Positions 32,194 to 34,817 of a DNA stretch of 64,000 nt are shown piece by piece (position 1 is the stretch's first letter; each line of letters opens with the position of its first letter). The notes under the pieces are model-generated. The model saw nothing but the letters and a program-made list of their open reading frames with translations, did not search any database and was not told the DNA's origin. The translations under genes were made by a program, and so were the position numbers. Source of the stretch: Candidatus Wolfebacteria bacterium RIFCSPLOWO2_01_FULL_45_19 (GTDB taxonomy: Bacteria; Patescibacteriota; Minisyncoccia; UBA6257; GWB1-45-9); assembly GCA_001793855.1 (NCBI GenBank), contig MGIR01000001.1, forward strand, positions 8,645 to 72,644, given 5' to 3'.

Positions 32194-32359
32194 TGTTCGC
32201 AAACGAACAAAGCAATTTCTAAACTCTAATATCTAAATCCTAAACAAATTTTAAAAATCAAATCTCAAATTCGAAACGTTTGGAACATTTGAATTTGGAA
32301 TTTTGAGATTGTTTAGAGATTAGGATTTCGAATTTAGGATTTCTTTGCGCTTGTGCGCA
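32194..32359. repeat. ~165 nt palindromic heptamer-repeat element forming an expansion in the 16S h40 loop
   Basis: Closed by CAGCACTT/AAGTGCTG. The arms tctaaactctaatatctaaatcctaaac / gtttagagattaggatttcgaatttaggattt match the element at 21795. Confidence 0.7.
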
Positions 32360-32725
32360 AAGTGCTGGGCAGTTTTGCCTGACACGTATAACAGACAATA
32401 GGGGTTGCGCTCGTTTCCCCACTTAAGGGAACGTCTCACGATACGAGCTGACGACAACCATGCAGCACCTGTCCTGACGTCCTTGAGAGACAACACGCCT
32501 TTCAGCATGTCTTCGTCAAGATTTCTAGCCCTGGTAAGGTTCCTCGTTTAGTATCGAATTAAACCTCATGCTCCACCGCTTGTGCGAGTCCCCGTCTATT
32601 CCTTTGAGTTTTAAGCTTGCGCTCGTACTTCCCAGGCGGCCTGCTTAACGCGTTAGCTTCGCCACTCCGAGGGTCGATACTCGAAACAGCCAGCAGGCAT
32701 CGTTTAGGGCGTGGACTACAAGGGT

Positions 32726-33856
32726 TGAATTTGTTACTTCGCGACAATAGTATTATTGTCACGCGAGCCGAACATTTCTGTCGGCTTCTCTATGTTGCCA
32801 TAGAGTCCGGACTATATCTTTATCTGAAAGCCGTCCATCGAGCCAGTTTCTTCTCGTATTCGGATAAAATAACCGAACGAGGAAAGCGGCTCAAACTTAC
32901 AACCTCAGATATCCAGCGTTCTTGAAATTGAGAATCTTTATAGAGAAGTATTGCTTTGCGCAACATGTCCGGCGTTGGTATATGCGGCAGAATGATGCGA
33001 AGAAACTTTTTTAATTCCTCCTGCGATCTGATCCATATCCGCCAATATTGCCGCCGCTCTCCTTTATAGATACGGGATATGGGAGATACGATATTTTTTA
33101 TATCCCATACTACTTTAAGGTAGCGAGATAGTATTTTGACAGATTCTTTGTCAAAGCCATCGGTACAAAATACTCCCTTTCTTCCTCCGTAACTAATAAG
33201 TGAGCCATCATCACACCACCATACGGCGAGCGATAACGGGGTCATTCGGTTCAGCCAAGTGCGTCTAATGCGCAATCGGTTATTTTTATACGTTAAGCGA
33301 TGCAATTCAGTTAACGCTGGCAGATTTCTGCTTATAAACCGCCACTTGCTGTTTACGCTGAAACCGTCGGCCCTTTGGACACTAATACTTTTCTCTCGCG
33401 CTATCTCTTGAAGCATATCTGCTTTCCATAAGAGATAATCTTTTTGTGTTTCCGAATGACGAATTTGTAAATTCGCATTGGCACATTTTTTTTGAATCTT
33501 CAACGAACCGTCTCCTAGGATTGTTCCTAAAATAACGGCTCGCGCTTGATCCGACAAAGGCACATACTTTTTATCATTTTGCATATTATTATTTTATACG
33601 CTCATGACATAATGCGCCAACTATCTTAACTCAATTTCATAGTCTCTACGGGGTCAAACAAAATGAAATTTGAACTTTCAATTTTGCATTCTGTCGACTT
33701 CCCTCGGGATTGTCCGTCCGACAGGACGGAGTTCCCCGATACAGCTAGATGCTCACCCCGACGTCGCCGTCGAGGGGGACACCTTTGACAACCCCGATTT
33801 ACATCGGGGCTCTTTGTTTCTACGGGCAAAAGGAAAACCCTCCACAAAGATTTCGT
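32726..33856 (-). mobile_element. group I intron in 16S (near E. coli position ~790) carrying a homing endonuclease ORF; boundaries approximate
   Basis: It interrupts GGATTAGATA | CCCTTGTAGTCC. P7 elements GTAGAGACTATG (R) and AAGATATAGTCC (S) are present. Confidence 0.75.
32820..33584 (-). CDS. LAGLIDADG homing endonuclease (double-motif)
   Basis: ILGDGSL and WCDDGSL motifs. Confidence 0.8.
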   Translation of the reverse strand: MQNDKKYVPLSDQARAVILGTILGDGSLKIQKKCANANLQIRHSETQKDYLLWKADMLQEIAREKSISVQRADGFSVNSKWRFISRNLPALTELHRLTYKNNRLRIRRTWLNRMTPLSLAVWWCDDGSLISYGGRKGVFCTDGFDKESVKILSRYLKVVWDIKNIVSPISRIYKGERRQYWRIWIRSQEELKKFLRIILPHIPTPDMLRKAILLYKDSQFQERWISEVVSLSRFPRSVILSEYEKKLARWTAFR

Positions 33857-34817
33857 ATCTAATCCTTTTTGCTCCCCACGCTTTCGTGTCTCAGAGTCAG
33901 GAACGTCCCAGCCAGCTGCCTTCGCCTTTGGTGTTCCGCACGATATCAACGGATTTCACCCCTACACCGTGCGTTCCACTGGCCTCTGACGTCCTCTAGT
34001 TCGGCCGTATCTCTTGCAGCCTCAGGGTTGAGCCCCGAGATTTAACAAAAGACGCACCGAACATCCTACACACGCTTTACGCCCAATAAATCCGGATAAC
34101 GCTTGAGGTCTACGTTTTACCGCTGGTGCTGGCACGTAGTTACCCACCTCTTTCCACAGGGTACCGTCAACCTCGCGCGTAGCGCGAGAACCGAAAAACA
34201 CATGAACGTAAAAACGTAAGAACAAGTTGTTCTTTGGTTTATAGGTTCTTTAGTTTTTTAGTTCTTGTGCTACGCACAAGGCTTCTTCCCCTGCTATCGC
34301 GGTTTACGACCCGAAGGCCTTCTTCCCGCACGCGGCGTCGCTCGATCAGGCTTTCGCCCATTGTCGAATATTCTCGACTGCTGCCTCCCGTAGGAGTATG
34401 CACCGTGTCTCAGTTGCATCGTCGGGGAACAGGCTCTCACCCCCCCTACCGGTCATAGCCTTGGTGAGCCGTTACCTCACCAACTAGCTGATCAGACCTA
34501 AGCCACTCCTGAAGCGATTTGCATCTTTACTCCGACACCCTTGCGGGGTCGGAGATTATTTGGAATTACCTCGTCTTTCGACGAGCTATGCCAAACTTCA
34601 GGGTATGTACTAAGGCGTTACTGACTCGTTCGCCACTGCCTCGCGCCTTGCGCGAGAACAAAAAAACGAAAGAACAAAAGAACTTAAGAACAAAAAGTTC
34701 TTGGGTTCATAAGTTCATGGGTTTTTTAGTCCTTGTGCAAAACACAAGGCCGTTCGACTTGCATGCCTTATCCACGCCGCCAGCGTTCATCCTGGACCAG
34801 GATCAAATCCTCAATAA

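Follow-up and report, generated by a model that had tools for sequence, protein, structure and literature searches.

The 16S rRNA gene of Candidatus Wolfebacteria RIFCSPLOWO2_01_FULL_45_19, an uncultured bacterium of the Parcubacteria group of the Candidate Phyla Radiation (CPR) from Rifle groundwater, carries three hairpin-forming segments which are probably DNA-level copies of lineage-specific hairpin repeat families, placed in the solvent-exposed apical loops of helices h6, h17 and h40. The gene lies on the minus strand, at positions 31829–34818 of a 64,000-nucleotide (nt) stretch of contig MGIR01000001.1 (hereafter the window, to which the coordinates refer unless another locus is named). 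An earlier reading of these letters (the original prediction) described a 16S gene of ~3 kb with three expansions besides an intron; the gene is 2,990 nt long and the three inserts are indeed found in the apical loops of h6, h17 and h40.

Infernal aligns the gene from end to end with the Rfam model of the bacterial small-subunit (SSU) rRNA (RF00177, 1261 bits, model positions 1–1533): it is a full-length SSU rRNA in which all the conserved helices are present. The alignment shows four departures from the model: the h6 hairpin loop, where 93 nt are added (model position ~82), the h17 hairpin, which has 103 nt versus 9 in the model (~455), the 790 loop, and the h40 loop, which has 175 nt versus 4 (~1157). 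When the intron and the three insertions are subtracted, the core amounts to ~1,490 nt, which is a normal size. Alignment to a covariance model was a check that the original prediction had itself named, and the helices, coordinates and strings given there prove correct within a few bases. The exact limits of the inserts were taken by eye from the sequence, and the boundaries of the intron are uncertain by 1 nt.

The locus is genuine: an assembly artefact or a pseudogene is an explanation to which we give practically no weight. Metagenome contigs are often broken or chimeric in rRNA genes, and this species is no exception, with contig breaks at 32566 and a divergence from the window at 36494. 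However, the intron-encoded protein is encoded by 13 contigs, which come from several samples and were built with several assemblers, and L163, which was assembled independently from another sample, covers the 16S from end to end without a single difference within the gene. Similarly, a partial contig from yet another sample (L166) covers the h40 insert with zero differences there, and two other partial contigs (L167 and L168) are identical to the window over the 16S stretches that they cover; the few differences among same-species contigs all lie outside the three inserts, and mostly outside the 16S. The gene order L31–16S–response regulator–pilins–secretion ATPase is common to the relatives. 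A pseudogene would have been fatal to the original prediction; the intact SSU match and the identical independent assembly argue against it.

The h6 and h17 inserts have the same architecture, in which a long periodic hairpin (B) stands between two short, GC-rich and mutually similar hairpins (A and C). The h6 (V1) module runs from 34750 to 34639 on the minus strand (112 nt; folding energy −32 kcal/mol, z-score (z) = −4.5). Its hairpin A is CCUUGUG-uuuug-CACAAGG, its hairpin C is CUCGCGC-aag-GCGCGAG, and in hairpin B (34730 to 34657) four 8-nt xxAxGAAC units face four GUUCUUxx units. The h17 (V3) module, also on the minus strand, runs from 34282 to 34171 (112 nt; −45.9 kcal/mol, z = −7.5) and consists of A (CUUGUGC-gua-GCACAAG), B (34262 to 34189) and C (CUCGCGC-uac-GCGCGAG). 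The two modules are identical at 88 of 112 positions (79%), the non-periodic GC hairpins included. They align without gaps over 112 nt, have the same ends and are paralogues, derived one from the other or from a common source. The 24 differences are unevenly spread: the 30 unpaired columns hold 18 of them, the 82 paired ones just 6 (Fisher p = 2e-8), which shows that paired positions are preferentially conserved between the two modules. One of the six changes in paired columns is compensatory (G-C to A-U), and another turns a U·U mismatch into A·A, as the inversion of part of a palindrome would do.

The same units occur in the intergenic spacers of the window. Hairpins of this AAGAAC/GTTC family are found on the plus strand at 46866–46946 (intergenic, profile score 73 bits), at 54346–54446, between a promoter-like TTGACA...TAATAT and the start codon of EF-Tu, at 57370–57450, where the element fills the L4–L23 spacer, at 62408–62490, downstream of L5, and at 63066–63134, downstream of S8. 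A half copy, made of the AAGAAC arm and the right terminus, lies on the minus strand at 13846–13894, in a spacer between minus-strand genes. The 5' arm of the spacer hairpins consists of 8-nt units ending in AAGAAC and the 3' arm of units starting with GTTC; the termini, ACTAAAGAAC ... GTTTTTAAGTTA, are conserved (also in the copy at 46866–46946), and the copies fold as rods of 4–6-bp helices with small internal loops between them (z = −3.2 to −4.5). An nhmmer profile was built solely from the five copies of the ribosomal-protein-operon spacers, leaving out the 16S inserts and the half copy. This profile matches the h6 insert with E = 2e-11, the h17 insert with E = 2e-9 and the half copy with E = 7.5e-9; as a control of specificity, 2.3 Mb of unrelated bacterial sequence yield zero matches at E < 1e-3. 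The profile also has zero matches at E < 0.01 in any of the relatives searched. The termini (ACTAAARAAC ... GTTTTT..GTT) and the number of units are common to the spacer copies and the h6 and h17 inserts, and in all eight copies of the family, with common termini and palindromic arms, are dispersed over the 64 kb. The original prediction had equated the aagaac/gttctt unit of h6 and h17 with that of the ribosomal-protein operon spacers, and this comparison bears it out: on sequence grounds, the membership of both inserts in this species-specific spacer family is solid.

The six spacer copies all have the same orientation relative to the genes, while the h6 copy scores higher with the profile in antisense orientation (39.8 versus 31.4 bits) and the h17 copy scores equally both ways. 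The position of the A-rich arm first relative to transcription was considered as an orientation signal and dropped, because the reverse complement of a palindrome keeps this property, which is therefore uninformative. Inspection of the flanks of the AAGAAC spacer copies revealed no direct repeats. A viral origin of the AAGAAC arrays was also considered, and the pattern has no match in IMG/VR.

The h40 insertion (32363 to 32190, minus strand, 174 nt; −55.5 kcal/mol, z = −8.2) is made of a second repeat family, with 7-nt units of the AAAUCCU kind. It is enclosed by the stem CCCAGC/GCUGGG, followed by ACUUUG/CAAAGU, and comprises hairpin A (CUUUGCGC-acaa-GCGCAAAG, 32362 to 32343), a long, AT-rich and 7-nt periodic hairpin B with the apex CAAACGUUU, and hairpin C (GCUUUGUUCG-uuug-CGAACAAAGU, 32213 to 32190). 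Its nearest relative in the spacers of the window is a 7-nt-periodic, AT-rich palindrome on the minus strand between tRNA-Trp and tRNA-Thr (21790–21885). The two share the periodic build, the start AAAUCCUAA and the apex CAAACGUUU, and align over 25/28 and 17/18 matches (blastn E = 0.002 and 0.034; nhmmer E = 0.008–0.04); the original prediction, which called the arms near-identical to the element at 21795–21880, overstated this resemblance. A half element of the same family is found on the plus strand in the L22–S3 spacer (59640–59680), and other Parcubacteria loci hold weaker relatives of the h40-type palindrome. A better match to the h40 hairpin comes from outside the window: it aligns with the h17 insert of a relative, L179, with 73.6% identity over 106 nt (pairwise blastn E = 1.6e-8; nhmmer E = 2e-4). 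Thus, related repeats sit in different helices in different species.

All three inserts replace the apical loops of conserved helices and extend them as hairpins, with folds of z = −4.5 to −8.2 and closing stems of up to 12 bp; the long hairpins are broken by internal loops. The three segments match no Rfam family at E ≤ 1 except for two chance-level hairpin matches, and neither a group I/II core nor a domain-bearing open reading frame (ORF) was found in them. The arms of A and C also seem able to exchange partners: the 5' arm of hairpin A still pairs with the 3' arm of hairpin C, by means of G-U pairs, wherever A and C differ (5 independent positions, counted by eye). This cross-pairing is suggestive (p about 0.03), and it is undercut by the equal folding of the sense and antisense strands. 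Another periodic hairpin, (AGCUGUU)n opposite (AUAAGCU)n, lies immediately upstream of the 16S 5' end (34819–34895, minus strand; −38.1 kcal/mol, z = −6.1), where Tandem Repeats Finder (TRF) detects period-7 arrays, and L179 has an analogous hairpin at the same site.

The intron in the 790 loop is separate from the repeat insertions. It runs from 33854 to ~32724 on the minus strand (~1,131 nt, boundaries ±1 nt), between the flanks GGAUUAGAUAC and CCUUGUAGUCC, gives a sub-threshold match to group I introns in Rfam (30.9 bits, E = 1e-5) and contains the ORF of a LAGLIDADG homing endonuclease (32820–33584, minus strand; Pfam LAGLIDADG_2, E = 1.6e-35). This protein is 100% identical to one of Candidatus Wolfebacteria RIFCSPLOWO2_01_FULL_45_19. 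Homologues of this protein led to the 16S loci of relatives, which have the same synteny and of which each is a stretch of only 6–21 kb. The initiation factor IF-2 was tried as another route to relatives and abandoned: its universal GTPase motif swamped the contig scans, the best identities were 42–50%, and no 16S was found near IF-2 there. The IF-2–16S synteny is not conserved, even at 74% identity. The relatives identified through IF-2 are classed as Patescibacteria, Paceibacterota or Wolfebacteria.

The original prediction had proposed a search for such elements in the rRNA of related genomes, and it is rewarded in L179, L181 and L182, whose inserts have the same design as those of the window, and not in the two closest loci. 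Indeed, L175 and L176 (intron protein 88% identical) have none of the three inserts: their h6 is short, 29 nt occupy the module site of h17, and h40 is a plain helix of 5–6 bp with a small loop. L179 (79%) has a 175-nt h6 region and a 226-nt h17 region (measured from anchor to anchor), both of the A-B-C type, with CACGAAUA and CCAAAUU units; it also has a periodic insert in the h44 tip and none in h40. In L181 (78%), a rod-like h6 insert is built of CGAAUGAG units and another insert is found near h10, while L182 (77%) has A-B-C inserts in h6 (CGCGGAUU units) and in h40 and an insert in h44. L183 (74%) has a short h6 and an h40 region of 367 nt (anchor to anchor) with a GIY-YIG ORF. The presence of inserts is therefore sporadic among close relatives, as it is for intervening sequences (IVSs): L175 and L176 are empty, and L179, L181, L182 and L183 have other inserts or use other helices. 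The sequences differ from one relative to the next, and the design is the same: a GC hairpin, a long periodic AT-rich hairpin and a second GC hairpin. The content of the 16S inserts is thus species-specific and fast-changing. The motif CUUUUG...CAAAAG, which closes the h40 inserts, is common to L183, L182 and the window, and an endonuclease-bearing element may have been the first to open the h40 site.

The h6 module of L179 is repeated in the spacer downstream of its 16S, with 87.5% identity over 144 nt. The limits of the spacer copy are exactly the start of hairpin A and the end of hairpin C, beyond which the flanks are unrelated, and three compensatory double changes separate the two copies. 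This pair shows the module to behave as a discrete unit which can be copied and which is also found outside rRNA; since the spacer copy includes A and C, these two hairpins travel with the module. Two other observations were made in the relatives. The h44-tip hairpin insertions of L179 (L179:13205–13325, 7-nt periodic) and L182 (L182:8374–8551) lie in the long penultimate helix of the 16S, and the intron of L179 holds a periodic palindrome (9760–9905) that is homologous to the near-h10 insert of L181 (3540–3700).

Spacer elements, too, are insertions: the orthologous sites in the L4–L23 spacer and the tuf leader are empty in relatives, as are the h6, h17 and h40 sites of the 16S in L175 and L176. 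The L4–L23 spacer of the window has 80 nt; among the ribosomal-protein operons available, the three most closely related have L4 and L23 4 nt apart, 2 nt apart and overlapping. The EF-G/EF-Tu spacer aligns with that of L184 up to TTGACA...TAATAT, after which ~95 extra nt of element precede the EF-Tu start; the tuf leader of L184 is devoid of the AAGAAC element. The same spacer contains, upstream of the promoter-like tuf motif, a 62-codon ORF (54129–54317, plus strand) which is conserved, although uncalled, in L184. In the S10–L3 spacer (55983–56309, 327 nt), a promoter-like TTGACA...TATAAT precedes a structured stretch of ~200 nt and a hairpin that resembles a terminator (56186–56208 and a T run); past this hairpin, the segment TTAATTGAGGATAGC...CCCGGGC...CCTCGGG is conserved in L185. 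This spacer matches no Rfam family at E < 0.05; an unannotated small RNA, a ribosomal-protein leader or both may be encoded there.

According to TRF, the window contains 33 arrays with a period of 7 or 8, in many unit flavours (AAGAAC, AAATCCT, TTTTAGC, AGCTGTT, GAAACTAA and others). Intergenic DNA, which makes up 8% of the window, holds 20 of them; 3 are in the 16S, and 10 overlap ORFs wholly or in part. Where the 16S has periodic inserts, there are 5.2 (window), about 10 (L179), 5.4 (L181) and 7.2 (L182) such arrays per 10 kb; the loci without 16S inserts have 0.9 (L175) and 2.3 (L176), L183 has 4.5, and the ribosomal-protein loci L184 and L186 have zero. Array density thus seems to track the rRNA inserts, in a comparison of few loci of 6–21 kb. 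One array, (AAATTCA)5, encodes an in-frame insertion of 15 residues, PVREIQNSKFKIQNS, in tsaD (39468–40529, plus strand; the region in question is 39836–39897), compared with an 80%-identical orthologue (L173); the insertion begins with an inverted copy of the neighbouring native sequence, which results in a 10-bp hairpin. Three more 7-nt-periodic stretches of tsaD encode LKAKxLKLKAD-like peptides, of which just one is present in the L173 orthologue. Between two minus-strand genes, the inverted arrays (TTTTAGC)5 (26486–26521) and (CTAAAAG)4 (26681–26711) stand on either side of ~160 nt, as a wider-spaced form of the periodic palindromes. A much longer unit, of 493 nt, is repeated in tandem at 23395–24328 (1.9 copies, 78% matches) and spans two ORFs without a Pfam match (22582–23787 and 23864–24331).

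The surroundings of the 16S have several features of their own. At ~34800–35300, GC skew and gene orientation both change sign and the cumulative skew has its minimum, which suggests a replication origin beside the 5' flank of the gene; since both switch there, orientation relative to transcription cannot be separated from orientation relative to replication in the window. The 3' end of the 16S (31829–31850) is GGAUUAAUUAAAC, devoid of the CCUCC anti-Shine–Dalgarno motif, as in the relatives examined (L176, L179, L181 and L182), and the two start-codon contexts inspected, those of EF-Tu (54451) and of the ORF at 51553, have no GGAGG-like motif. On the other side, the same-species contigs L163–L165 match the window to ~36494 and then diverge, and L164 runs on into an SLT_2 gene; the gene order of the relatives, L25–SLT_2–RF–L31–16S, is that of L164. 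The first ~100 residues of the IF-2 ORF of the window have no counterpart in its homologues. Either a rearrangement between strains or a chimeric join made in the source assembly could explain the divergence at ~36494. Between the 16S and this point, a release-factor-like protein of 238 residues (35558–36274, plus strand) begins to match the PCRF domain at profile position 101; it appears to be without its N-terminal domain, and the versions of the relatives are likewise short (238–261 residues).

These observations lead us to the following scheme. Hairpin repeats whose arms are short tandem arrays of 7- or 8-nt units would have multiplied in this Wolfebacteria genome. The palindromes would arise and change their number of units by slippage, while selection for the hairpin, or template switching within a strand, would keep the arms symmetrical. 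Complete elements would be copied to new places, including the loops of surface rRNA helices, and the candidate processes are ectopic recombination, gene conversion or the transposition of a non-autonomous hairpin element. In the RNA, the insert would fold independently into a rod or a four-way junction, clamped by the GC hairpins or by a 12-bp closing stem, and leave the ribosome core undisturbed; it may be tolerated because it folds by itself and the host helix stays intact.

Several points weigh against this scheme. The rRNA modules cannot simply be copies of the spacer elements of the ribosomal-protein operon, which are devoid of hairpins A and C, and the sequence link between h40 and the spacers of the window is marginal. 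Neither a target-site duplication nor a link to a transposase can be demonstrated for the module. The sense and antisense strands are about equally stable across 18 elements, and since both strands fold alike, there is no evidence for selection at the RNA level over the maintenance of DNA palindromes. In addition, the relatives are few and their contigs short. The original prediction spoke of a mobile or expanding palindromic family which is tolerated in the variable loops of rRNA. The paralogous h6 and h17 modules, the L179 spacer copy and the empty orthologous sites speak for this idea; its weaker side is the h40 link and the spacer copies without A and C.

Mobility could have a more specific form. 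The module might be a distinct small mobile element which integrates into hairpin loops, perhaps moved as single-stranded DNA by a Y1/HUH protein, and whose copies are retained, rebuilding the tips of h6, h10 and h17, which are usually absent from these ultra-small bacteria, and extending h40 and h44 as species-specific expansion segments made of selfish repeats. A candidate protein exists in the window: a Y1/HUH transposase-like gene (6144–6863, minus strand; Pfam Y1_Tnp, 32 bits, and a weak match to the REP-associated tyrosine transposase), flanked by genes for an aminoacyl-tRNA synthetase and a protein of the EPSP synthase family. L182 has a homologue with 50% identity about 5 kb away from its 16S (L182:1–566). 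The gene has its own hairpins (6120–6140, 6664–6684 and 6871–6907), and a related motif, TTAGGGCTTCGCAAGCCCTAA, is found on both sides of it and nowhere else in the window. These flanking hairpins are unlike A and C, a further point against the scheme, and because they occur only at the Y1 gene in the window, the link between Y1 and the repeats is merely a lead. We regard this form of mobility as rather improbable. Growth of the variable regions in place, by local replication slippage, with the likeness to the spacers coming from a mutational process that acts genome-wide, would explain the many unit flavours of the window arrays, the different units that relatives carry at the same helices, and the failure to find a target-site duplication or a cognate transposase. 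It is nevertheless unlikely, since independent slippage would not reproduce the gap-free paralogy of h6 and h17 (79% over 112 nt, with the non-periodic GC hairpins and the ends), the spacer copy of the whole L179 module, with its sharp boundaries, or the common termini detected with the spacer-only profile (E = 1e-9 to 1e-11).

Alternatively, the repeats could be functional RNA signals, such as processing or cleavage sites or arrays for RNA-binding proteins, which would be selected rather than selfish or neutral. A periodic hairpin adjoins the mature 16S 5' end in both the window and L179, paired positions are strongly conserved between the paralogues, and 6/6 AAGAAC spacer copies are co-oriented with genes. 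However, gene orientation coincides with the direction of replication, so that this bias is ambiguous, and the h6 copy fits the antisense orientation better (39.8 versus 31.4 bits). The orthologous positions of the closest relatives are empty, the unit sequences vary among loci and species, and the sense strand has no advantage in folding, which together make selected signals quite an unlikely explanation. A further reading takes the three segments for small self-splicing introns, or for degenerate remnants of insertions that carried a homing endonuclease. It is suggested by the group-I-like intron with a LAGLIDADG gene in the same 16S and by the h40 insert of L183 (367 nt, GIY-YIG ORF), whose closing motif CUUUUG...CAAAAG recurs in L182 and the window; the h40 insertion may descend from such an element. 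We consider it very improbable for the three segments, which are simple hairpins of 112–174 nt without a catalytic core and have neither an intron nor any other Rfam match at E ≤ 1 beyond the two chance-level ones; moreover, two of them, those of h6 and h17, are members of the repeat family found in the spacers.

The inserts may also alter the structure of the mature 16S, as the original prediction expected. The comparison of genes and transcripts by Brown et al. 2015 (as summarised in PMC9297842 and PMC11270868) suggests that most CPR rRNA insertions are predicted introns or are removed. By analogy with RNase III-processed IVSs, the inserts may be transcribed with the pre-16S and removed at the closing stems, leaving a nicked 16S, and we put this outcome at slightly better than even. 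The closing stems could serve for cleavage by RNase III, while the periodic internal loops would make the long hairpins poor substrates of this enzyme. Retention of the inserts as bacterial expansion segments is a serious possibility too, somewhat short of an even chance. Helices h6 and h17 are surface helices which are usually truncated in CPR bacteria (PMC9297842), and in this 16S the truncation-prone sites have been refilled; their surface location is consistent with retention in the mature rRNA. The sequence by itself leaves the matter undecided, because sense and antisense strands fold equally well.

Insertions in CPR rRNA genes have been catalogued by Tsurumaki et al. 2024 (PMC11270868), who found that 48% of CPR 16S genes have insertions of at least 100 bp, counting only those of at least this length relative to E. 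coli. Besides group I/II introns with LAGLIDADG genes, the remainder is described as "uncharacterized", ORF-less and mostly < 200 bp, and the short, ORF-less, non-intron insertions were considered as possible RNase III intervening sequences (PMC11270868). The 16S of the window has one intron of the known kind and three insertions of the uncharacterised short class: they have 93–175 nt relative to the Rfam model, no match to an intron model and no domain-bearing ORF. The work on CPR insertions (PMC11270868) describes no tie to intergenic repeats, no 7–8-nt periodicity and no three-hairpin module. More generally, literature searches returned no account of rRNA insertions tied to intergenic repeats, or of a three-hairpin periodic module in a bacterial 16S.

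Classical rRNA IVSs are known from the 23S of Salmonella, Leptospira and Campylobacter, with rare cases in 16S, and are excised by RNase III. They are near-perfect long duplexes, mainly found in helices 9, 25 and 45 of the 23S. Like them, the inserts are sporadic and (nearly) non-coding, and replace the apical loop of a conserved helix with extra hairpins, the host helix being the closing stem. Unlike them, they occupy three sites in one 16S, have stems interrupted every 4–6 bp and share sequence with dispersed spacer repeats; their excision is putative. The elements of the REP/REPIN (repetitive extragenic palindromic), MITE (miniature inverted-repeat transposable element) and Rickettsia palindromic types are short non-autonomous palindromes with many copies, mostly intergenic; those of Rickettsia are occasionally found in frame within genes. 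Two of the three features considered for MITE- or REP-like elements are found here, namely dispersed copies with conserved ends and empty orthologous sites. The elements are also co-oriented in operon spacers, and the window has a Y1 (HUH) transposase-like gene of the REP-mobilising kind. They differ in that their arms are tandem arrays of a variable unit, that no target-site duplications are seen and that no Y1–repeat link can be demonstrated. To our knowledge, and in the literature searched, there is no report of REP- or MITE-like elements inside 16S rRNA helices. The expansion segments of eukaryotes and archaea are retained in the mature rRNA and vertically inherited; they change gradually and are not copies of dispersed repeats. 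The inserts resemble them as long helical extensions at exposed helix tips, variable between lineages, and may or may not be retained in the same way.

In placozoan mitochondria, dispersed hairpin repeats of the spacers also occur as indels in rRNA and protein-coding genes (PMC7813641). The rRNA inserts and the in-frame 15-codon insert of tsaD are reminiscent of such mitochondrial inverted repeats, double-hairpin or palindromic elements (Allomyces, sponges, placozoans), which differ in being organellar and usually GC-rich clusters or simple hairpins, not arms of 7–8-nt tandem units. TIGR arrays, which consist of ~36-nt units with two ~9-nt spacers and box C/D motifs beside a Tas gene (PMC12045711), were considered and ruled out: the period here is 7–8 nt, in inverted arms, and box C/D motifs are absent.

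For the CPR group, the locus suggests an origin which can be checked for at least some of the uncharacterised short rRNA insertions, namely the periodic hairpin repeats of the genome itself. Among the few loci sampled, repeat-rich genomes hold such repeats in rRNA tips, in operon spacers and even in frame in a protein gene. In practice, the 16S lengths, the alignments and the surveys with primers obtained for this group are distorted by inserts of this kind. Depending on the fate of the RNA, these bacteria would have either repeat-derived expansion segments in working ribosomes or a multiply nicked 16S rRNA.

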